Source of the DNA: Victivallaceae bacterium
GTDB taxonomy: Bacteria; Verrucomicrobiota; Lentisphaeria; Victivallales; Victivallaceae
Length of the DNA: 64,000 nucleotides
Assembly (NCBI GenBank): GCA_045533055.1
Contig: JAZSHD010000236.1
Span: forward strand, 4,160-68,159
Direction: 5' to 3'
This document shows positions 5,138-22,748 of the stretch, piece after piece. How positions within the stretch are numbered: the first letter of the stretch is position 1; every line of letters starts with the position of its first letter. The translations under genes were made by a program, and so were the position numbers. The notes under the pieces are model-generated. The model was given only the letters and a program-made list of their open reading frames with translations. It was not told the origin of the DNA and made no database searches.

Positions 5138-5152
5138 AAATCCAGAAGCTCC

Positions 5153-5233
5153 TCAATATCGTTTTTCCGGAATGACCTCAAGCCAGTAGTTATTGGGCAC
5201 ACTTGTGATAACAGATAGTTTCCCATTATCCAT
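5153..5233 (-). pseudogene. remnant copy A of the 3' end of a glyoxalase/VOC gene (26-codon mini-ORF MDNGKLSVITSVPNNYWLEVIPEKRY*)
   Basis: The minus-strand translation aligns with the C-terminus of the intact VOC gene at 22116-22200 (DPNNYWLEVIPENRY*). It is ~85-90% identical by eye at nucleotide level to copy C (21007-21084). It is followed at 5286-5345 by sequence co-linear with the upstream region of the intact gene (22524-22583). Confidence 0.7.
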
Positions 5234-12600: not shown

Positions 12601-13331
12601 CCATCAACTATATCTTTGATTTCGGCTATGAAGCCGAAGGTACAGTCATTTATCCGGGATATCTCAAAAATAATCCGGTAAAGATCAACAACAAAGATGT
12701 TCTGGCAACCGTGGTAAAACGCAAAGATGGTGAAGTATTGCTGATGATCGGCAATGTGGGCAAAAAAGCGGTCAAGGCGACCTTTGATCTGGGCAAATTT
12801 GCTTCCGGTACTATCTATGATGCTGAAAGCAAAACCATCATCGGCAAAGGCAGTAAATTCACTTTGCCGATAGAAAAATACAGCTACCGGTTGATCCAAG
12901 TCGGCAAAGCTCCGGCAAACGCCCAAAAACTGTCAGGTGTTGCCAATTGGAACAAGGCGACCCGGGCGGTGCTGGAACACACAGCAGAAAGTTTGATCAT
13001 CAAAGATATCAAAAAAGATCACTACATCGTTAATAAGACTCTTCAGCTTGATACCAATAAAATCAGCACGATAACGATCAAATACCGTGCCCGCGGCATT
13101 GCCGGTAAAACCAACGGACAGCTTTATTTTGCCAAAGATAAGCAGAAGTTCGGTTCGCCCCGTTTTTTCCGGCTGCCCAGCTTAAAGAGTGATGATGCCT
13201 ACCGCACAATAACTATAAAAACCGCCAAAAATCCGGAGTGGAAAAAACTTGGCAAAGTTACTGCCATAAGATTGGATATGATGGATCAAGCTACTGGAGT
13301 TATTGAAATAAAAGATATAAAATTCCAGTAA
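9636..13331 (+). CDS. large secreted or lipoprotein-like hypothetical protein with CBM9-like N-terminal module
   Basis: 1231 aa. Signal/lipobox-like MKFFSIVGKALCAFFLLFAAC. The IPVIDGKFDAAEWQDA motif resembles other CBM9-like modules in this window. The central region (YGFTGIYYDNIFD) looks glycosidase-like, but no family could be assigned. Confidence 0.6.
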   Translation: MKFFSIVGKALCAFFLLFAACGTIIAEAVQAPWMQKIPVIDGKFDAAEWQDALVWKRSISGKNKLLALRNTLFYFGCDGKNLYLAQQSELKPSHIQAEEKRCWEITLLPPGGKQVSFAIEPGKSGKLPAGAVVKYGTAKGFWHVELAIPLSSFSGKDLADGVWGVQMFRKWNIPGEKAMWHLPTAKEPLAQIRIVPKGVLCNLVDMINHTKLASWRLTWQIKNTLDKPVTLRWTADVKSLEAPVNRAKNITLAPGASEEVVMQSIFMPGTYRTFTAEVKNAADNTVYWQRKFSWDFAQAKKWFDPDPPLQLHYAVHPTAQTLRVRVFCRNAKKFANVAKAEVLVTHESGKVVARKALTKRANKDWFSYWNEPEMKNWPLGKYTLTVKATGKDGKNQELKGSFGRHKFEWENNKLGKSEQYIPPFKPLKVKNNEIHALLTGYRRSGVFWDAVYAQDKNILAAPIELKINGETFKSITTRQVKAPFGHVIFETDFIYKDLKLTAVHDYDYDGMCKVTLKFAPVKPVKIDSMYFDIDLKKEYVTLYSAMGARLRNNFHGWVPEKEGLVWDSLRGRVLNPLLKGFRPYIWVGEQYKGFCWFAETPHNWSIDPSKPAQTLTVEKSAVRVRINLVNKPVTRDKKFDIVMGFQPTPVKPQPKVAAMPGLVHRVKFVPRSKYRNIIASYIYMCMRYEDGMLSVPPNNDWSFLEYVAADKWKTPAEAQAFALDYVKRNKLDQSEYRSIYDYSPALSKNLHLSMRAFCEVYRPSNVRIQYQNPRAVAPNSKEFNMYSDEWSLWETRPPSLERMSHFGCDPTDKLTDFMLYNLRKLYKYGFTGIYYDNIFDTPCYNVAKGPAIEVEPGKIMPYYPLFEMRELLKRSALFLHEEGRYLGGYPLLESHITDTVMIPLVSFNAVTLDWEMNFGSDPYPRRFSQPYILTNTVGTQTGTLGATIIQRDKTMPGDEIERSVLAVQFANNLMSGKLYATPGMFYQNAINYIFDFGYEAEGTVIYPGYLKNNPVKINNKDVLATVVKRKDGEVLLMIGNVGKKAVKATFDLGKFASGTIYDAESKTIIGKGSKFTLPIEKYSYRLIQVGKAPANAQKLSGVANWNKATRAVLEHTAESLIIKDIKKDHYIVNKTLQLDTNKISTITIKYRARGIAGKTNGQLYFAKDKQKFGSPRFFRLPSLKSDDAYRTITIKTAKNPEWKKLGKVTAIRLDMMDQATGVIEIKDIKFQ

Positions 13332-13351
13332 GTGGAGCTTAAAGTGAAGCT

Positions 13352-13406
13352 CGGGCTGTACATCAGCGGCAAATGACTTTTGCCTGAAGTACAGCCCGTA
13401 TTTTTT
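13352..13406 (+). terminator. rho-independent terminator of the 9636..13331 gene
   Basis: CGGGCTGTAC (13352-13361) pairs with GTACAGCCCG (13389-13398), and an inner GGCAAA/TTGCC stem lies within the loop. TATTTTTT follows. Confidence 0.7.
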
Positions 13407-13427
13407 ACAGCCTGTGCTGCTAATTAC

Positions 13428-13502
13428 TCAATAGCGGTTTTCCGGAATGACTTCCAGCCAGTAGTTGTTGGGGTCTATGAGCATAAACTATAGTTACCCA
13501 TT
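13428..13502 (-). pseudogene. remnant copy B of the VOC gene 3' end (…IDPNNYWLEVIPENRY*, upstream frame broken by a stop)
   Basis: The minus-strand translation ends WLEVIPENRY*, identical to the intact gene's end. The fragment ends at 13502, directly abutting the terminal CRISPR repeat at 13503. Confidence 0.7.
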
Positions 13503-14662
13503 GTTTGAGACCCCTATAAAACTGCACTACTCTCAAACATATGCACCCCACACCAGCTAATGGCAATGGGTTGAGACCCCTATAAAACTGCACTACTCTC
13601 AAACACATGTACGGATAAGAGTTACTATTATTGGGGTTGAGACCCCTATAAAACTGCACTACTCTCAAACTCTTTCTTTCCTACGCCCTCTGTGCAATAG
13701 GGTTGAGACCCCTATAAAACTGCACTACTCTCAAACTCAAGTTTAACTTGATATAACGGGGATTATGGTTGAGACCCCTATAAAACTGCACTACTCTCAA
13801 ACAAACCCCATAGCCATAACCTTGGCAGCTTGGGTTGAGACCCCTATAAAACTGCACTACTCTCAAACCTGCTCCCTTTTGTTGTTGCCTATACTTATGG
13901 TTGAGACCCCTATAAAACTGCACTACTCTCAAACCCGCGTGCTGTCATCTCTGTCCCATTGGGCGGGTTGAGACCCCTATAAAACTGCACTACTCTCAAA
14001 CTTGCTCTAATTATAATTTAGCACGAAAAAAGGGTTGAGACCCCTATAAAACTGCACTACTCTCAAACCCGGCGGTGTTGTTGATGTTACTTGCTTTCGG
14101 TTGAGACCCCTATAAAACTGCACTACTCTCAAACTATGTGCCTACCTCAAAGGTGCCAATTTGGGGTTGAGACCCCTATAAAACTGCACTACTCTCAAAC
14201 GGCGACTTTTGTATATATGTGAATCCATTGGTTGAGACCCCTATAAAACTGCACTACTCTCAAACCGCTGTAATGTCGGGATGTCGACAGGCATTGGTTG
14301 AGACCCCTATAAAACTGCACTACTCTCAAACTGAGTACCCTCCAAGGAGTATACCCATTGAGGTTGAGACCCCTATAAAACTGCACTACTCTCAAACTGC
14401 ACGGCAAGATACTTACAGTTAGTCGCCGGTTGAGACCCCTATAAAACTGCACTACTCTCAAACCGCTTGGCGGCGATAGGCTTCAACCCGCCTGGTTGAG
14501 ACCCCTATAAAACTGCACTACTCTCAAACATTGTTTATAATGTGATGGTTTGAACGCACGGTTGAGACCCCTATAAAACTGCACTACTCTCAAACCCTAT
14601 ATATATAGGCGATTTCAATTTTTGAGGGTTGAGACCCCTATAAAACTGCACTACTCTCAAAC
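13503..14662 (-). CRISPR. CRISPR array, 18 x 36-nt repeats and 17 spacers (29-31 nt), type II-A-like repeat
   Basis: Repeat in transcribed (minus) sense: GTTTGAGAGTAGTGCAGTTTTATAGGGGTCTCAACC. Repeats start (plus coordinates) at 13503, 13569, 13635, 13701, 13767, 13833, 13899, 13966, 14033, 14099, 14165, 14230, 14296, 14362, 14428, 14494, 14560 and 14627. The repeat at 13503 is degenerate (GTTTGAGACC instead of GGTTGAGACC on the plus strand), which marks the leader-distal end. Confidence 0.97.
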
Positions 14663-14785
14663 CTCAAATTTACTTTTTGGGATCGAGAATTATATCAGTT
14701 TTATAAGAAATTCACACATCGTAAGATGTGTTTTGTGACCCTGGCAATAATATAACAGTATTAACAGAAATGTCAAATCTGAAAA
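14663..14785 (-). promoter_or_regulatory. CRISPR leader with near-consensus sigma70-type promoter
   Basis: On the minus strand: TTGACA (14776-14771), a 16-nt spacer, then TATATT (14754-14749). The leader ends ...AAATTTGAG immediately before the first repeat (14669-14663). The ACACATC-GTAA-GATGTGT hairpin lies within the leader. Confidence 0.6.
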
Positions 14786-15451
14786 TCAAATTTCACACAA
14801 ATCATTGTCAATGAGCAACCGTTCTTCACGAGAAAGTTTTTTATAAACTTTGTTGTCAATAAGTAAAATATTATGTTCTTTCCGGCAGCAGGTTTCTGTA
14901 AAAAGCTCTAATACAGCATCGTCCAAAAAAGAACGGAGATTTACAAATATAAAAACAGAAGCCAGCCCGTTATCATTCATCAAATCCATATATACCAACA
15001 GTTTTTCCGCCAAGTCCGGATAATCTTCTTTTAACTGAATTCCTGCTGATTTTAACAAAGATGATATCGAAAGTCGTTCCGGCTCCAGTTCTAAATCATT
15101 TTGGAAGGCAAGATCATAAATTAATTTTTCAATACTCCCGAGTATCTGCTGACTCCGCTCGTAAAACTCCTGATTCATTGCCAGTTTTTCCATTTTAGCA
15201 AGAATTTTATTCAACAGAGTTTTCTGATTGATTTCGAAAGAAAAAAGGTCTGCAATCAGGACCAAATTACCGGAAACAGGAATCGGTTTTTCATCGACAG
15301 AGAGTACAACAGGACCATCTTCCCCGCAGCTTTGGTGATGCAAATCGTCGATAAAACGAAAAAACAAACTTGGATTTTCAATCACTAGCGACGGAAAGGT
15401 TCCGTTGTTAAACTTGATAACAGACTTGATTTCAGGATAAGCCAGCTTCAT
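14786..15451 (-). CDS. csn2: type II-A CRISPR-associated protein Csn2
   Basis: 221-aa ORF immediately downstream of cas2 (4-nt ATGA overlap) and immediately upstream of the leader. Its size and position are diagnostic of subtype II-A. Sequence similarity to known Csn2 is only weak by eye. Confidence 0.75.
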   Translation of the reverse strand: MKLAYPEIKSVIKFNNGTFPSLVIENPSLFFRFIDDLHHQSCGEDGPVVLSVDEKPIPVSGNLVLIADLFSFEINQKTLLNKILAKMEKLAMNQEFYERSQQILGSIEKLIYDLAFQNDLELEPERLSISSLLKSAGIQLKEDYPDLAEKLLVYMDLMNDNGLASVFIFVNLRSFLDDAVLELFTETCCRKEHNILLIDNKVYKKLSREERLLIDNDLCEI

Positions 15452-15768
15452 AAAATCACCAATGATTGTTCGGTTGTTACCACATCGCTTTTCATATCAC
15501 CGACGATAAATGAAATCCCAGAAAATTGTTTTTCCGTAATAATCATTGCACAAACCATTCCCTGGGGCGGCTTAAAACTTTCGATTCTAGCCACAACGCT
15601 TTTTGCCATTGCTTCGTTGATAACCATACGGCAATACACAGACTCCTGCAGCATAAAAAAGCCGTTTAAGATCAAATCATTGCGAATACGCCGATAATTC
15701 CGCCGGTTTTCAGAAGTTGCTGTCGGTAAATCAAAAAACACCATCAATCTCATAAATCTGTTACTCAT
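15448..15768 (-). CDS. cas2: CRISPR-associated endoribonuclease Cas2
   Basis: 106 aa. MSNRFMRLMVFFDLPTATSENRRNYRRIRNDL...QESVYCR closely parallels S. pyogenes Cas2 ([32 protein letters not shown]...QFSVYSK). Confidence 0.93.
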   Translation of the reverse strand: MSNRFMRLMVFFDLPTATSENRRNYRRIRNDLILNGFFMLQESVYCRMVINEAMAKSVVARIESFKPPQGMVCAMIITEKQFSGISFIVGDMKSDVVTTEQSLVIL

Positions 15769-15770
15769 TT

Positions 15771-16682
15771 TTATGTTACCGGTTCAGTAAAAGTTCGTTT
15801 TTTCTGCCATGAACAAAATTTCACAGCAGATAGCTTCCCGAGAGTAATTGTCTTGAAAATACTTCGGACATAGATCATAATACAATCGTCCAAACGCCGT
15901 TGAGTTCCATCAATAAAGAATGGCTGATTGAAAATTTCCAGCATCCGATGTTTTTCTTTAGAACCGAACTGAATGAATCCACAGGAATCAACCCAACGAT
16001 CGATCAGAATGCGGAACGGCTCCATCAGGTCGCAGCTCAGATTGAAGTGATTAAATGTATTATGATGTGTGATCCCCAACTGAGTGGAATAACCGCTGGA
16101 AACGATTTCACGGTTGAATGCCGATAAGATCAATGAATAACCGTAGTTCAAAGCGGAATCAACAGCCGATCCATCACCCCGCCTGAATGAATTTCCGAAG
16201 ATTTTATTGAAATAAACCTTTGCGGCATGACCTTCCCGATTGCTCATATCTCCGTATTGCAGATTTTTTACATAATCCATCAACATTTCAGACTCGCGGT
16301 TCATCTTTTTTTCAGCTAAAAATAATGCCTGATTGCGTATTTTCTCTGCAATGATTTCTGTCCAAAGCAGTTGGCAAAAATCTGTATTCCACTGAATTTG
16401 TTCCCGTAATTTTCCGGAAGACTCTCCATGTCCGTAACATGGGATCAGTTCTGCACAGGGAGAGTGCTTTTCATCACAGAAAATGACTTTGATCTTCCGT
16501 TTTATCAATTCTGCAAGCAGACAGCCCGTCACACAGCAAGATGGATTTTCCACAATCAGGGTATTTACCTCATCAAGAAAAACTCGTACGGTATCGTCAT
16601 CACGACGGATGACAAGATACCCCATGCGGAGATCAAGCTTGCTGCGTTTCTCAATAACAACTGTCCGGAAGCTCATGATCAA
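15771..16682 (-). CDS. cas1: CRISPR-associated integrase Cas1 (type II)
   Basis: 303 aa. NREGHAAKVYFNKIFG, ALNYGYSLILSAFNREIV and GITHHNTFNHFNLSCDLMEPFR match conserved type II Cas1 blocks. Confidence 0.95.
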   Translation of the reverse strand: MIMSFRTVVIEKRSKLDLRMGYLVIRRDDDTVRVFLDEVNTLIVENPSCCVTGCLLAELIKRKIKVIFCDEKHSPCAELIPCYGHGESSGKLREQIQWNTDFCQLLWTEIIAEKIRNQALFLAEKKMNRESEMLMDYVKNLQYGDMSNREGHAAKVYFNKIFGNSFRRGDGSAVDSALNYGYSLILSAFNREIVSSGYSTQLGITHHNTFNHFNLSCDLMEPFRILIDRWVDSCGFIQFGSKEKHRMLEIFNQPFFIDGTQRRLDDCIMIYVRSIFKTITLGKLSAVKFCSWQKKRTFTEPVT

Positions 16683-16684
16683 AC

Positions 16685-19600
16685 TCAGATCAAATCAAGA
16701 AGATTGACACTCTTTGTTTCATGCAAACCGCTGGCATCAGAGTAAACAATCCGAACCGTTGAAAATGTTTTTTTCCAGTTTGACAAACTACTGGGGAGTG
16801 TTGTTACCGCAGCATTCTCAACACCACCGATCGAACTCAAATCGACTCCAGAACCACTGCTTCTGCCCATACATTTGATAATTCCCAATAATATTTCAGC
16901 TTGTTTTTCCGGGGGAAGTGCAATAAACTTATCGCGTCCTTTTTCAAGATATTCCAGGGGATTTGCTGGTCGCTTGGCAAACATTCCTGTCCGCAATTTA
17001 TCCGTTAAGGCATCATAAAGTTCTACATTGCTGTCCACAGAAAATTTATCATACTCTTCGGAATACATAAATTTTGGATTTTTACGTTTTTTCTCATAGA
17101 ATGATTCCAAACGTTTGATGTACCGTTCCCAATAACTATCCAATAACAAAGGCGAAGCGATTCCTACACCAAGTTTACTTCCACCACTGCTTTTCCCGTT
17201 AAGGATGAACCGCAACCCATTATCGACCTCAAAAACAGTTTTGATCTTGATCGGTTTTATTCCCAGCGGGAACTTGACAGTAAAGTCTTTTTTCCCTGTC
17301 GGATCAATAAAGATTTTTACATACATCTCAGCAAAAGCCTTATCGTTCAAGTACTTATCTGCAATCATCAAATCAACCGGGACAAGAGTCAACTCTTTTT
17401 TAGTTTTCTTTTTTACAGTTTCTTCAGTTAAAACGAAAGAGAAAAATGCCGCTGCTGCTTTTCTGTAACCGCCATAAATTTCCGTCGGCTTCCCTTTTTT
17501 CAAAGGAATCAATCCAGATGTTGCAGGTTTGGGAGTCTGATCAAACAAACCTCCATGCTGGCAGAAAGTATAATTTGTAAAATGCATATAATTCCGTTTC
17601 AGGATATTTTTTACTTGAGCAATATTTCTGCTGCCATCCCAAATAATTTCGCTGTGCCTGTTTTTAAGGCGGCTTTTCTCTCCGAATACAACTTTTGTCT
17701 TTACACTGTATTCGTCAGAATGTTCCATAAAATAGTTGCGGGTGAAATATTCATGCCAGACATTTCCGACAACAATATTGAGATACGCATCTTTTCCATG
17801 ATGCAAATCATTGACAACACGAGATTTCACCAGATCGAATTCATGTCGAAAATCAGAAACCAGTCCGGCTTTGACGTAAACGATTTCGGTGTCCGGATAA
17901 CGCTCTTTCAGCAATTCTGTTAAGACTTTTGTTGACTGTCTGTTTTCCACCAGCTGCCGATTGATGAAGCCCCATTTTTCATCTTCAGAGAACGAAGTGG
18001 AACGAGTCAAACGGAAAAATTTTTCATCAGAGATCAAACCATTATCTTTCAAATATTTCCAGAACGGCGTCATTTTTTTGCGGATATCTGCATTCAGCGG
18101 GTAAGCATCACTCTTCGCACCATTGATTTCACTGCGAACCAGAACGAGGTTATTCAGAAGGCTGTCATCTTTCACCTTTGACTGCGGATAGATATGCTCT
18201 TTATTGCAAAGAGAAAGACCCGTGATTGATATGGATTCCCCTGTATACATATCCCGCCCAAGCTGCATGAAATACAGATAAAGAGTATCTTTTTGCAATG
18301 CAGCTTCGTCATAGCTGTCAAGTTCCTTACTGAGTCTTCTGATATCATCATCGGCTATACTTTCATAAAGTTTTTTCAGACTGACAATGCGTGAAAGTTT
18401 CCTTTTCCCTTTTTCCTTGCTGTCAACATCGCGAGCCATTTCCACAAAAATTTTCCGCGGAGCTTTTCCCATAGTCTTTACAATCTCATCAAGGATGGTA
18501 AAGGTACGGATGATCGGGCGTTTGACAGCGTTGGAAACATACATTTCATCAAGTCGATTCGTAAGCGACTGCGGTCTTTCGGAATAATATTCCCGTCTGG
18601 CAGCATCCACCATCTTCCGGAATGGATATTTATCACTCATCAACTGCTGTAGATTGAGATTGTATTCCCACATCATGTTGATGATGGAAAGTTTTCCTCC
18701 GGTTTTAACATCAAAATGCCCCGGTTCCGTCAGAAACTTTCTGGAAAGTCTTCCAAAACCCTGAAATTTTTTGAACGAGAGTTTTTTGACATCATCGTCT
18801 GATAGTTTTTGGAATTTTTTCAAATAATTGCGGTACCGGAGATTATCTTCCGTAAAAGATCTTTGGTGAATGATCTCTTCAGCTTCTGACTCTGTAAGTT
18901 TTTTCTCTTCAAAAAAAGGGTTAAAAATCTTCCAGCTGCTCAAAGAAGCCGTAATCGTATCATCAATTCCAGTTATACAGCTTTCATCCAATTCATTATA
19001 AAGATTGTTGGATTTCAAACAATTGAGTATTGTCTTTTTCGTAATCTTACTGTATTTGAAGAACAAATCATACAGCAACTGCTTGCATTTTGTTGTTACT
19101 GGAGCACCATTAATATGAATTGCGTTCAATAGATTTAACACCTCAAAACGCTGATACAGCAGAGAATGTTTCGGTAAAACTTCTTCATTGGGTAAATAGG
19201 TGCACTTATTGCACATTCGTTTGATGAAAGCTTCTTCGCTGGCTTCAAGATCAACTTTCTTTTCAAAATTCCACGGCAGAATCTTTCCCTCAGTTTTTCG
19301 TTTCAGCCAGGCAAAATTGCTGTGAGAGTTCAGAGGCCCGACAAAATACGGTATCTTGAATTCCATAATAGAAAGGATTTTATTTTTAACGGATAAACCA
19401 TCTTTATCGCATTCCAAAAGGAACGGTAAATATCCGGAAGCTTTGCTTAGCAGATTATTCAATTCATTCCAATACAACTGATAAGGAACCGTTCTGTTAT
19501 TAGTGACAACCTGTTTCGGCAGGAATTTATTTGACAAAATATCCAGCCCAATCTGATCAAAAAGACTTTGATCTGCGGAATCTTCAATCACCATATTTTT

Positions 19601-20761
19601 AAGTTTTGATTTGAGAAAGTTATAAAAATCTTCTGAATTGGCTCTTTTTTCTGCAGAACCGATATATGATACATAATTGGCTCTACTTTTGGTGTTGCGG
19701 AAAATTTCCTGAAAACCCTGTTTCGTCAAATACTTTTTTACAAGATATTTCAGCTGTTTCAAGTCAGACTTGTGCTTTTCATAAATCTTCACTTTTGAAT
19801 CAGAAATGTTCTTCCCGCCGCCAATAATATCCGCAAGAATTGACCAATCAAAAACTTTTTTCATAAGAAGCAGCAGTGCTGCATCCTCTTCAGACAACTC
19901 AGAAAGCATTTCTGCAATTTTTTCATCATCAGAATCAAGCAGAATTTTTATATCTTCATACTTGGCAGAGGGAAAGAGTTTTGCAGCTTTCGTTTCCAAG
20001 CCGCACAGCAGCCGCAAGAATTCATTTTCATCAATCCAAGGTAATTCGTCTGAGGAAAGAGCTTTTTTAAATTTTTTGACCTGAAGAAATTCCGCAACTT
20101 TTTTCCCTTTATCAGATCTTGTCGACGCCGATTTCAAAATATTTCCGATGTCAGTGATTTTTACGCCAAGATGTTTCCACGAAAAGATATATCCATTATC
20201 TTCGACATAATTTTCCAATTCGTTGTAGACAGACTGAAAATCAATTAATTCATCAACTTTTTCTTTTGCAACTTCACAGAAAAAATGTCCCCTGTGAACA
20301 ACCAGCCAGGCACAGGCAAGATATACAAGACGAACATCATGCGGAGAATCGGAATCCATCAGTTCGGAAATAAGATGATGAATTGTTGGATACTGCTTAT
20401 AAAAATCAACATCTGTGTATTCAGAATCAGAGAAGATCGCAAAACGGGGTTCTGAGGCATCTTTTTGCAGAGCACTGCAGTCGATCCGCTTAAAAAAGTT
20501 CCGGTCAACTTTGTCGATTTCTACTGAAAAAAGTTCCCGCAAAAGCTGTACCCTCTGCTGCCTGCGGTCAAGACGTCTCCTGGCGGCACGATGAGTCCGG
20601 CGTTCTTCTGCCAAGTTTGCAGTTTCAAAAAGATGGACACCCCATATCGGATGCTGCTGGTACTTGATCAAATCATAATTTGTCTCCGTTACAGCGTACC
20701 CGGTCGAATTGGTCCCAACATCAAATCCGACAAAATAATCAAGATTTTTTTGATTTTTCAT
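16685..20761 (-). CDS. cas9: CRISPR-associated endonuclease Cas9 (type II-A, ~SpCas9-sized)
   Basis: 1358 aa. RuvC-I GFDVGTNSTGYAV; Arg-rich bridge helix RRTHRAARRRLDRRQQR; RuvC-II IFVEMARD; HNH EHIYPQS...NLVLVRSEINGAKSD; RuvC-III DLHHGKDAYLNIV. Confidence 0.97.
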   Translation of the reverse strand: MKNQKNLDYFVGFDVGTNSTGYAVTETNYDLIKYQQHPIWGVHLFETANLAEERRTHRAARRRLDRRQQRVQLLRELFSVEIDKVDRNFFKRIDCSALQKDASEPRFAIFSDSEYTDVDFYKQYPTIHHLISELMDSDSPHDVRLVYLACAWLVVHRGHFFCEVAKEKVDELIDFQSVYNELENYVEDNGYIFSWKHLGVKITDIGNILKSASTRSDKGKKVAEFLQVKKFKKALSSDELPWIDENEFLRLLCGLETKAAKLFPSAKYEDIKILLDSDDEKIAEMLSELSEEDAALLLLMKKVFDWSILADIIGGGKNISDSKVKIYEKHKSDLKQLKYLVKKYLTKQGFQEIFRNTKSRANYVSYIGSAEKRANSEDFYNFLKSKLKNMVIEDSADQSLFDQIGLDILSNKFLPKQVVTNNRTVPYQLYWNELNNLLSKASGYLPFLLECDKDGLSVKNKILSIMEFKIPYFVGPLNSHSNFAWLKRKTEGKILPWNFEKKVDLEASEEAFIKRMCNKCTYLPNEEVLPKHSLLYQRFEVLNLLNAIHINGAPVTTKCKQLLYDLFFKYSKITKKTILNCLKSNNLYNELDESCITGIDDTITASLSSWKIFNPFFEEKKLTESEAEEIIHQRSFTEDNLRYRNYLKKFQKLSDDDVKKLSFKKFQGFGRLSRKFLTEPGHFDVKTGGKLSIINMMWEYNLNLQQLMSDKYPFRKMVDAARREYYSERPQSLTNRLDEMYVSNAVKRPIIRTFTILDEIVKTMGKAPRKIFVEMARDVDSKEKGKRKLSRIVSLKKLYESIADDDIRRLSKELDSYDEAALQKDTLYLYFMQLGRDMYTGESISITGLSLCNKEHIYPQSKVKDDSLLNNLVLVRSEINGAKSDAYPLNADIRKKMTPFWKYLKDNGLISDEKFFRLTRSTSFSEDEKWGFINRQLVENRQSTKVLTELLKERYPDTEIVYVKAGLVSDFRHEFDLVKSRVVNDLHHGKDAYLNIVVGNVWHEYFTRNYFMEHSDEYSVKTKVVFGEKSRLKNRHSEIIWDGSRNIAQVKNILKRNYMHFTNYTFCQHGGLFDQTPKPATSGLIPLKKGKPTEIYGGYRKAAAAFFSFVLTEETVKKKTKKELTLVPVDLMIADKYLNDKAFAEMYVKIFIDPTGKKDFTVKFPLGIKPIKIKTVFEVDNGLRFILNGKSSGGSKLGVGIASPLLLDSYWERYIKRLESFYEKKRKNPKFMYSEEYDKFSVDSNVELYDALTDKLRTGMFAKRPANPLEYLEKGRDKFIALPPEKQAEILLGIIKCMGRSSGSGVDLSSIGGVENAAVTTLPSSLSNWKKTFSTVRIVYSDASGLHETKSVNLLDLI

Positions 20762-20789
20762 TTGACTTTTTTCTTTTCTATGTTATCTT
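20762..20789 (+). promoter_or_regulatory. candidate tracrRNA promoter (extended -10)
   Basis: TTGACT (20762-20767), a 16-nt spacer, then TGT-TATCTT (20781-20789). The -35 box starts 1 nt from the cas9 ATG on the other strand. Prediction only. Confidence 0.4.
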
Positions 20790-20795
20790 AACAAT

Positions 20796-20893
20796 TGTAG
20801 TCTGTGACCCCTATAAAACTGCACTACGAGTTCAAATAAAAATTTATTCAAATCATTAGCACAAGCTAAATGCACGTTGGTGCATCTTTATTT
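20796..20893 (+). ncRNA. tracrRNA: tracrRNA (predicted)
   Basis: GACCCCTATAAAACTGCACTAC (20806-20827) is a perfect 22-nt complement of crRNA repeat positions 9-30. A GAG bulge follows, then TTCAAAT, which pairs with repeat positions 1-7 as in the SpCas9 lower stem. Next come an AU-rich nexus-like segment, the hairpins TTAGC-ACAA-GCTAA and TGCAC-GTTG-GTGCA, and finally TCTTTATTT. The 5' end is approximate. Confidence 0.8.
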
Positions 20894-21006
20894 GAGAGCT
20901 CTTTTCCCTTTTTGTATTTTATTGTTCTGTTACTATACTCTACAAGAGTGGACTTCTTTAGTCCACTCTATGAAAAAATCAGGAAAATTTTTTATTATTT
21001 CATTTT

Positions 21007-21084
21007 TTACCGGGTTTCCGGGATGACCTCCAGCCAGTAGTTATTGGGCACACTTGTCATAACAGATAGTCCCCCATTATTCAT
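21007..21084 (-). pseudogene. remnant copy C of the VOC gene 3' end (25-codon mini-ORF MNNGGLSVMTSVPNNYWLEVIPETR*)
   Basis: Very similar to copy A across the whole mini-ORF, with similarity ending within a few nt of the ATG and the stop. It overlaps the last 8 nt of the RhuM-like gene in another frame. Confidence 0.7.
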
Positions 21085-22093
21085 CTTTTGGACGGTTGCG
21101 GAGCGATTCTTCAAGCAGTTTCAACTCCTGTAAATCTTCCCAATCAGCCTGTTTGGCGGCTTCTGTTTTACGCCTTTGGCTGAATACTTCGTAGCGTTCG
21201 CTTACGATTGTTTTCATCTCATTATTGCTGATTGAACCCGCGTTGTTCAATATTTCAAAACCGTTGAACTCCAATAACTGATTGACATTATTCCGCCAAA
21301 AATTCATGGTTAGAGAACGACGATTTTTGATCCGCAATTCAGCCGACTCCAAAAAGATCATGACCAGGCGGTTAAGTGAATCTATTTCATCCCGGCTTAA
21401 AAAGTTTTTAGCAATAAATATATCCCCTTTGCGGACGATCGATCCAGCCCAACTGGTCGCACCGAAATTTGGCAGTTCGGCTTGGGCTCGTTGAACAATG
21501 ATCTCTGCAGCTGTAAGATGAGTTACCGCATAAAGCAGTTTATTCTGCGTTTCAGCAAAGAACATCTGGGTCGATTTGTCAGTAGCATCGTAATCACTGC
21601 TCAAACTGAATAATTCCCGAACCTTTTGGTAAAAGCGTTTTTCCGAAGCCCGAATCTCCCGGATGCGTTCCAGCAATTCATCAAAATAATCAGGGCGACC
21701 GTCAGGATTTTTCAAACGGTCATCGTCAATGACAAAACCTTTCCGCATAAATTCAACAAGATTGCGGTTCGCCCATTGCCGGAATTGCACGCCCCGCTTG
21801 CTCCGCACCCGAAACCCAATGGCAAGGATCATATCAAGGGAATAATAAGCCACATTGTAATCTTTGCCGTCGGCGGCAGTTGTTAAATAAAACTTAACAA
21901 CTGAATTTTCTTGCAACTCATTGTCTTCAAATATGTTGGATATGTGGGTTGAGATGTTAGCTTTGGAGGTGGCAAAAAGTTCAGCCAACTGATTTTGGTT
22001 CAGCCAAACACTGCCGTCTTTAGCCAATAAAGAGATATTCACCTTGCCGTCAGAGGTTGAATAAATGATGATTTCTTCTGAACTATTGTCCAT
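21077..22093 (-). CDS. RhuM family (virulence-protein RhuM-like) protein
   Basis: 338 aa. IIIYSTSDGKVNISLLAKDGSVWLNQNQLAELF...HISNIFEDNEL...AIGFRVRSKRGVQFRQWANRNL matches the conserved RhuM N-terminal region as I remember it. Confidence 0.75.
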   Translation of the reverse strand: MDNSSEEIIIYSTSDGKVNISLLAKDGSVWLNQNQLAELFATSKANISTHISNIFEDNELQENSVVKFYLTTAADGKDYNVAYYSLDMILAIGFRVRSKRGVQFRQWANRNLVEFMRKGFVIDDDRLKNPDGRPDYFDELLERIREIRASEKRFYQKVRELFSLSSDYDATDKSTQMFFAETQNKLLYAVTHLTAAEIIVQRAQAELPNFGATSWAGSIVRKGDIFIAKNFLSRDEIDSLNRLVMIFLESAELRIKNRRSLTMNFWRNNVNQLLEFNGFEILNNAGSISNNEMKTIVSERYEVFSQRRKTEAAKQADWEDLQELKLLEESLRNRPKDE

Positions 22094-22115: not shown

Positions 22116-22490
22116 TCAATACCGGTTTTCCGGGATGACTTCGAGCCAGTAGTTGTTTGGGTCGGTCACGAAGTAAATTCCCATTTCGGGGTTTTCGTAG
22201 CAGATGCAGCCCATTTCTTCGTGGCGTTTGTGGGCTCCTTCGTAATCATCGACCTTGAATGCCAAATGAAATTCGTTGTCGCCGAGGTCGTATGGGCGAT
22301 CCATTTCCCGCAGCCAGGTCAACTCAAGCTGATGGCTTGAATTGCCGTCTTCCAGATATACGATGATAAAGCTGCCGTCTTTAGCGTTGATGCGGCGGAC
22401 TTCGTGCATATCAAAAGCATCCTGATAAAATTTAATGCTCTTGTCAAGGTCAAAAACGTTCAAATTGTTGTGAACCATCCGGAATTTCAT
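22116..22490 (-). CDS. VOC family protein / lactoylglutathione lyase-like (glyoxalase I)
   Basis: 124 aa from ATG 22490 (AGGAGAG upstream). MKFRMVHNNLNVFDLDKSIKFY...HQLELTW...FHLAFKV...YWLEVI carries the H/E/H/E metal-ligand pattern of glyoxalase I-type VOC proteins. Confidence 0.85.
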   Translation of the reverse strand: MKFRMVHNNLNVFDLDKSIKFYQDAFDMHEVRRINAKDGSFIIVYLEDGNSSHQLELTWLREMDRPYDLGDNEFHLAFKVDDYEGAHKRHEEMGCICYENPEMGIYFVTDPNNYWLEVIPENRY

Positions 22491-22748
22491 AGAAAATCTC
22501 TCCTGTTTTAATGTATTGCAAACAAAACATAATACCACAACACCCTAAATGCAAATTCGGAATGTTTTTTCTTGCTGATATTTAACTTCTTTTTTATCGA
22601 TGCTGTCTGGGGATGGGCTAAACACGGAGAATGAACAACTGATATTTTTTATTATGAAAAAGTTAAATTTTCACAATATATGAGATTATTTTTTCGTTTG
22701 AGGTTGATTTTTTACTTGAACAGTGTTATTTTATAACATGGAGGAGTT

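Follow-up and report, generated by a model that had tools for sequence, protein, structure and literature searches.

The 64,000-nucleotide (nt) stretch of DNA analysed here as a whole, hereafter the window, is taken from contig JAZSHD010000236.1 (positions 4,160 to 68,159, forward strand; GenBank assembly GCA_045533055.1) of a Victivallaceae bacterium (Lentisphaeria), and carries a CRISPR locus together with the genes of a Cas9 system. Four cas open reading frames (ORFs), namely cas9, cas1, cas2 and csn2, are tightly packed on the minus strand, with csn2 and cas2 overlapping by 4 nt, and are followed on the same strand by a leader and a repeat-spacer array. Upstream of cas9, on the opposite strand, a short gene for the trans-activating CRISPR RNA (tracrRNA) is predicted. 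The coordinates of all features are given in Table 1.

Table 1. Features of the CRISPR-Cas9 locus and its surroundings, and solo elements found in related genomes (G, C and L numbers are our handles for genomes, contigs and loci; positions without a handle refer to the window).
Feature	Position	Strand	Remarks
Left direct repeat	13432..13502	plus	about 70 nt, imperfect; brackets the whole locus
CRISPR array	14662..13503	minus	18 repeats of 36 nt (GTTTGAGAGTAGTGCAGTTTTATAGGGGTCTCAACC), 17 spacers
Spacer 8	14164..14135	minus	protospacer match 27/30 in the 6.7-kb contig G172:C369, which has a Rep_trans-like and a Zot-like gene; 3' flank CAAAAAA
Spacer 5	14361..14332	minus	protospacer match 28/30 in G170:C86, near a phage-type DNA methylase, same-family genome; 3' flank CGAAACT
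Leader	14785..14663	minus	123 nt; promoter-like site; ATTTGAG end
Leader 3' end ATTTGAG	14669..14663	minus	abuts first repeat (GTTT)
Leader promoter-like site TTGACA-16-TG-TATATT	14776..14749	minus	consensus match 11/12
csn2	15451..14786	minus	221 amino acids, short form; TIGR01866, 174 bits
cas2	15768..15448	minus	TIGR01573
cas1 (type II)	16682..15771	minus	listed ORF starts at TTG; TIGR03639, 292 bits
cas9	20761..16685	minus	1358 amino acids, type II-A; from family and structure matches and tree placement
tracrRNA promoter-like site TTGACT-16-TG-TATCTT	20762..20789	plus	consensus scan; -35 box directly adjoins the start codon of cas9 on the opposite strand
Predicted tracrRNA	20796..20893	plus	about 95 nt, divergent to cas9; ends inferred from promoter and terminator
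Anti-repeat	20806-20827	plus	22 nt; pairs 100% with repeat nt 9-30
GAG bulge	20828-20830	plus	tracrRNA module
Lower-stem strand UUCAAAU	20831-20837	plus	tracrRNA module
Nexus	20838-20849	plus	pairs 20841:20848 and 20842:20847
Hairpin 1	20856-20869	plus	tracrRNA module
Hairpin 2 / terminator	20870-20885	plus	then CTTTATTT
U-tract	20886-20893	plus	tracrRNA 3' end
Right direct repeat	21008..21078	plus	brackets the whole locus
Solo element G002:C78	L122:7456-7544		
Solo element G028:C53	L123:6428-6523		
Solo element G028:C83	L113:1444-1531		
Solo element G014:C13	L116:1435-1532		
Solo element G182:C3	L110:1531-1627		
Solo element G013:C19	L146		partial

All four Cas proteins are named by Pfam and NCBIfam with scores well over the cut-offs. 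Cas9 matches Cas9_REC, Cas9_PI, Cas9_RuvC, HNH_4 and Cas9-BH, besides TIGR01865 with 856 bits, and its alignment to the chains of Streptococcus pyogenes Cas9 (SpCas9) and of FrCas9, the enzyme of Faecalibaculum rodentium, places the catalytic residues of the RuvC and HNH domains at D14, E774, H856, N880, H988 and D991. The gene csn2, a marker of subtype A, is the fourth in the row after cas1 and cas2, and its product matches the TIGR01866 equivalog over the full length, far over the cut-off of 35 bits. Csn2 has 221 residues in five of six relatives looked up as well, the relative L099 holding only a 142-residue fragment, and wherever the locus of a close relative is readable, the gene is there. 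Thus, an initial annotation of this DNA, which had described a 1358-residue Cas9 with every catalytic motif next to apparently intact Cas1, Cas2 and Csn2, is borne out by full-length ORFs, family matches and aligned active sites, as are its count of 18 repeats and 17 spacers and its assignment to subtype II-A, for which the adjacent csn2, the ATTTGAG leader end and the grouping of Cas9 with II-A enzymes speak.

As in the S. pyogenes II-A locus, the order is cas9-cas1-cas2-csn2-leader-array, and the tracrRNA lies ahead of cas9 on the opposite strand; the window differs from it in that its leader ends in ATTTGAG and not in the ACGAG type. This ending, reportedly the Group 1 leader-repeat junction motif of S. 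thermophilus CRISPR1 (Wei 2015; Van Orden 2017), stands in S. thermophilus as in the window immediately before the GTTT of the first repeat, whereas the remainder of these two leaders is unrelated. Relatives keep the ATTTGAG leader end, and a -35/-10 pair (TTGACA/TATATT-like) is recognisable in several. Of the II-A leader-end motifs ATTTGAG and CTRCGAG, the former is that of Group 1 and is needed for adaptation in S. thermophilus (PMC5382924), and by analogy it may have the same role here. The leader also contains a hairpin between the promoter and the first repeat, ACACATCTTACGATGTGT (14714-14731, minus strand), recognisable in the close relatives L004 and L094, and it further has boxes resembling degenerate pieces of the repeat (CAGGGTCACAAAAC and TTATAAAACTG).

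The 17 spacers of the array are all unique and 29-31 nt long, and 17 of the 18 repeats, the leader-proximal ones, are identical, the leader-distal repeat differing by one base. This last repeat (13503-13538) ends in ...CTCAAAC, the form found in most Lentisphaeria-clade relatives with a ...GGGGTCTC... repeat, and the other 17 (13569-14662) end in ...CTCAACC; it seems that a change in a leader-proximal repeat was copied into every later unit. Neither a second array nor own-genome protospacers were found in the whole 3.6-Mb assembly.

With regard to the tracrRNA, the anti-repeat, which lies upstream of the cas9 start at a distance of about 45 nt, is the sole other match of at least 22 nt to the repeat in this genome (E 4e-6). 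Some 100 related loci were fetched for comparison, and in nearly every one with a readable array (about 55 related loci) the best anti-repeat lies at the equivalent place and on the equivalent strand. Promoter and terminator calls were made by consensus scan only; relatives L094 and L095 have a -35/-10 pair at the position equivalent to that of the window, and L006 keeps only a weaker -10-like TATTTT. The guide of SpCas9 consists of a lower stem, a bulge, an upper stem, a nexus and 3' hairpins, and the same modules recur here, with differences in their sequence: the window has a GUUUGAG/UUCAAAU lower stem, a GAG bulge and an A-U nexus stem with a UUUA loop. Among 32 loci, many gut Clostridia included, the 7-bp lower stem of the duplex was invariant (32/32), and most had the GAG bulge as well as the nexus sequence in common. 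The upper stem, on the other hand, varies in sequence between loci and keeps its pairing with each locus's own repeat.

This fold is supported by covariation in 33 distinct orthologous tracrRNA sequences, from which RNAalifold recovered both 3' hairpins with compensatory changes. Paired cells amounted to 82%, compared with 24-52% after sliding the partners by 1-3 columns; 11 of 13 pairs had changed on both sides, and none of 500 shuffles reached the observed covariation score. The 2-bp nexus stem was paired in 95.5% (inner pair A-U in 19, G-C in 9 and U-A in 2 sequences), and hairpin 1 in 94%, its four outer pairs all being compensatory. Since pairs were counted on a structure written from the window tracrRNA, itself part of the alignment, these counts somewhat favour that structure, but the compensatory pair types are independent of its derivation from one aligned sequence. 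In consequence, the position, strand and fold of the tracrRNA put forward in the initial annotation are upheld, as is the 22-bp perfect upper stem, which the genome-wide repeat search returned exactly as claimed, and the single-guide RNA (sgRNA) scaffold proposed there, in which GAAA links repeat nt 1-12 to tracrRNA 20824-20893, folds just as drawn (-19.8 kcal/mol, z = -3.15). The traits presented as features of this genome, with G5:C pairing in the lower stem, GAG as the bulge and a nexus rich in AU, are indeed there, but they belong to a large clade that includes gut Clostridia. Could the conserved block instead be a 5' untranslated region or promoter element of cas9 on the minus strand? Its strand was assigned from the sequence alone, and since only about 40 nt separate it from where cas9 starts, cas9 transcription must cross it; yet the plus strand unites a promoter-like site, an anti-repeat, co-varying helices and a hairpin with U-tract, and an anti-repeat that co-varies with the repeat of each locus is explained only by a pairing partner of the CRISPR RNA (crRNA). 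We therefore give such a substitute for the tracrRNA hardly any chance, noting that both functions could coexist in the block.

Taken together, these features very likely represent an intact type II-A CRISPR-Cas9 adaptive-immunity locus of a Victivallaceae (Lentisphaeria) bacterium of the animal gut, which as a phage-defence system is complete and, judging from its sequence, probably working. It is an ordinary example of a well-known system type. Transcription, RNA ends, cleavage and the protospacer-adjacent motif (PAM; tentatively NRAAA) are predictions, the steps being those of established II-A systems. The leader promoter would drive transcription of the array into a pre-crRNA, each repeat of which would pair with the divergent tracrRNA (about 95 nt) through the 7-bp lower stem, the bulge and an upper stem of at least 22 bp. 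Host RNase III, which the genome encodes (TIGR02191, 230 bits, over the cut-off; G000:C121), would process this duplex together with Cas9, and Cas9 loaded with crRNA:tracrRNA would use its HNH and RuvC sites to cut DNA that matches a spacer and lies beside a 3' PAM. New spacers would be inserted at the ATTTGAG leader-repeat junction by Cas1, Cas2, Csn2 and Cas9.

Lentisphaeria or Victivallaceae is the title of the assemblies that hold the Cas9s nearest to that of the window (55-92% identity), which make up at least 20 clusters, some already named Cas9 in NCBI. Sequences of gut Clostridia and Oscillospiraceae follow with 43-52% identity. In a tree of 50 Cas9 sequences the Lentisphaeria proteins were monophyletic (Shimodaira-Hasegawa-like approximate likelihood ratio test, 100), and their union with the gut Clostridia clade had 100% support, with other Bacillota and one Spirochaetales sequence outside; the tree was rooted on a Bacillota sequence, and this rooting is not secure. 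In this tree, which had no II-B or II-C references, the Lentisphaeria clade sits within Bacillota II-A sequences, and the best PDB matches are likewise II-A enzymes, FrCas9 (9jwk) first and then SpCas9. The phylogenetic placement proposed as a check in the initial annotation thus puts the enzyme with II-A sequences and not in a non-II-A clade, within the limits of that reference set. The sister loci in gut Clostridia and Oscillospiraceae with GTTTGAGAG repeats (e.g. L013, L007, L019-L093) share with the window the repeat's 5' end, the tracrRNA position, the tracrRNA core GAGUUCAAAUAA, the nexus and the two hairpins, and differ in host phylum besides Cas9 identity. Clostridia tracrRNAs (L007, L013, L019, L033, L042 and others) furthermore have a third, GC-rich terminator hairpin, which the Lentisphaeria versions shown in the comparison lack; in most of the latter, the window's included, the U-tract follows directly after hairpin 2, L006 and L096 having none.

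Seven of 251 species genomes of the window's own order carry this Cas9, and none of the nine other genomes of the same genus does. The locus has a GC content of 36-42%, about 10 points under that of its flanks (47-52%), and forms a low-GC island that was probably acquired once, long ago, by a Victivallales ancestor from gut Bacillota, spread in this order and was later lost repeatedly. The GC difference, together with the Clostridia origin of the nearest outgroup Cas9s, could also point to a chimera of binning or assembly, in which the locus would in truth be that of a Firmicute living in the same gut. This is most improbable: the contig measures at least 68 kb and has genes typical of the Planctomycetes-Verrucomicrobia-Chlamydiae (PVC) group on both sides (DUF1559/N-methyl pseudopilin, GH123-like and CBM9 proteins), the same Cas9 clade occurs in seven or more assemblies of Lentisphaeria or Victivallaceae that are independent of one another, in three of which cas9 also adjoins a glyoxalase gene, and DNA contigs of other samples span the array trailer and the tracrRNA-side flank. 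The PVC host named in the initial annotation agrees with the same-family genomes and with the titles of the closest Cas9 loci. Its view of an orthologue outside Firmicutes holds for the host, but the protein is not isolated, being one of the Lentisphaeria clade.

As to the targets, both protospacers were found in the search of the 251 order genomes, and the target genes were named by family matches. The spacer 8 protospacer occupies positions 463-492 of L121 (the 6709-nt contig of G172), which probably represents an inovirus-like element whose host is one of the Victivallaceae. No mismatch is close to the PAM-proximal end, as spacer 5 matches perfectly over its 3' 14 nt and spacer 8 over its 3' 20 nt, and by our own estimate fewer than 1e-2 such matches are expected by chance over the search space. 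The PAM may accordingly read NRAAA, as far as two protospacer flanks suggest. The spacer search proposed initially thus yielded matches for two of 17 spacers in order genomes and a tentative PAM, but none in phage or plasmid collections.

FrCas9 (PDB 9jwk/9jwn; PMC12926199) also belongs to type II-A, resembles the window Cas9 in size and has the same RuvC and HNH motifs, and it aligns with the window Cas9 from end to end (residues 3-1355, 646 bits, E 1e-192), whereas the PAM-interacting domains are only weakly alike (43 bits). SpCas9, despite its aligning catalytic residues, loses similarity near residue 1003, its PAM-interacting domain remaining unaligned. FrCas9 recognises NRTA, and at PAM position 3 the two protospacer flanks found for the window read A instead of T. 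The residues of FrCas9 that contact NRTA, N1137, Y1198, R1213, T1214, K1321 and Q1334 (PMC12926199), align to K1101, K1174, K1190, S1191, G1303 and N1316 in the window Cas9, so that four of six are replaced by unlike residues and the other two conservatively. Such replacements fit a different PAM, and a PAM distinct from that of FrCas9 is plausible, albeit on weak evidence. With these differing contacts and the A-rich flanks, the enzyme is a reasonable, not an exceptional, candidate for a PAM screen, and its PAM is possibly new. We know of no characterised Cas9 from the Lentisphaeria phylum, for which the present work supplies an annotation that has been checked and a guide-RNA scaffold validated by comparison.

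Several observations weigh against a working locus of this kind. In Cas9, the HNH residue His856 is preceded by Glu855, where SpCas9 has Asp839 (D839-H840); the change is conservative, and K854-E855-H856 is invariant across the alignment of 24 Lentisphaeria-clade sequences. The consensus scan for promoters and terminators gave no excess over shuffles. An Rfam scan of 13000-21500 matched no family at E <= 1, the tracrRNA family RF02348 included; that model was presumably built on Streptococcus-type tracrRNAs, and the missing match does not lower the functional reading. The PAM is drawn from n = 2 protospacers. The whole-array search of phage and plasmid collections in distant mode and exact scans of IMG/VR with the seeds of spacers 8, 5, 1 and 2 returned no match. 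Spacers of relatives were searched too (176 from Lentisphaeria-clade arrays locally, and two further arrays order-wide), and the protospacer flanks of an 84%-identical relative (ACGCTGG, ACCTTGG, CACAAAG, CTCGGCG and GTTCCGC) have no common 3' motif. The sole metatranscriptome (X21), which may contain DNA, yielded only a 90-95% relative of cas9 and repeat-spacer contigs, and does not extend over the tracrRNA. As for the 84%-identical relative (array L101/L004), one of its spacers perfectly matches a contig of its own genome (L126; G113:C111:17475-17505) with the 3' flank ACGCTGG, and because of this perfect self-target its flanks were not pooled for the PAM. Possibly, the self-target is tolerated for lack of a PAM.

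The spacers without match in phage records would also be expected of a silent or recently inactivated relic that provides no present immunity and is perhaps being lost as in its relatives, as would the rarity of the locus in order and genus, and five related genomes that keep only a tracrRNA scar. Such a relic appears unlikely to us, as the four cas ORFs are full length and agree in length with those of relatives, the 17 leader-proximal repeats are identical, and for two spacers a match was found among mobile elements of the family to which the host belongs. Furthermore, spacers differ between samples with nearly identical cas genes: three DNA runs from animal guts contained cas genes at least 99.7% identical to those of the window, none of the 17 spacers was present, and other spacers stood between identical repeats. 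We thus retain the intact, probably working II-A locus as our interpretation.

The scars just mentioned are, in our opinion, the most original lead of this study. Five cas9-less genomes among the 251 carry solo elements that are 85-88% identical to the whole tracrRNA: G002, which belongs to the window's genus, G014, G028 with two copies, G182, and G013 with a partial one (Table 1). Native tracrRNA genes begin with tgtaGTCTG... after an AT-rich promoter; the five full-length orphan copies begin with GTTTGAG..., which is identical to the repeat's 3' end in complement, and have unrelated GC-rich DNA ahead. Each solo element thus has a repeat-type 5' part, the rest being a full tracrRNA. They are flanked by ordinary chromosomal genes, such as RtcR, WYL, GH42-like, amidohydrolase and peptidase M20. 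Because array and tracrRNA are encoded on opposite strands, the anti-repeat has the same orientation in the DNA as the CRISPR repeats and forms direct repeats with them, and we are inclined to believe, with some reserve, that a single crossover between repeat and anti-repeat deletes everything from cas9 through the array and leaves a solo hybrid behind, as a built-in route of self-deletion. Such deletions would explain the patchy distribution of Cas9. Phage-borne guide mimics (bioRxiv 2026.06.01.729453) were considered for these hybrids and rejected, given the chromosomal gene context and the lack of a repeat-like arm before the anti-repeat. A narrow literature search found no paper describing such hybrids. 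The hybrids point to a simple way in which type II loci may erase themselves by recombination, and if this is general, Cas9 losses throughout the bacteria could be counted from such fossils.

Finally, the two direct repeats that bracket the locus derive from the 3' end of a glyoxalase gene at 22116-22538. Copies of this 3' end lie at 5152-5229, 13432-13502, 21008-21078 and 22116-22163, and none elsewhere in the genome. A joint of 13463 to 21041 in run X1, considered as an excised or empty form of the locus, was not counted, as it occurs in one contig with a shorter side of 30 nt and the joined sequences are themselves repeats. The four copies delimit three tandem blocks, made up of a RhuM gene, the CRISPR-Cas locus and a glycan block of 8 kb (IclR, DUF1559, GH123-like).

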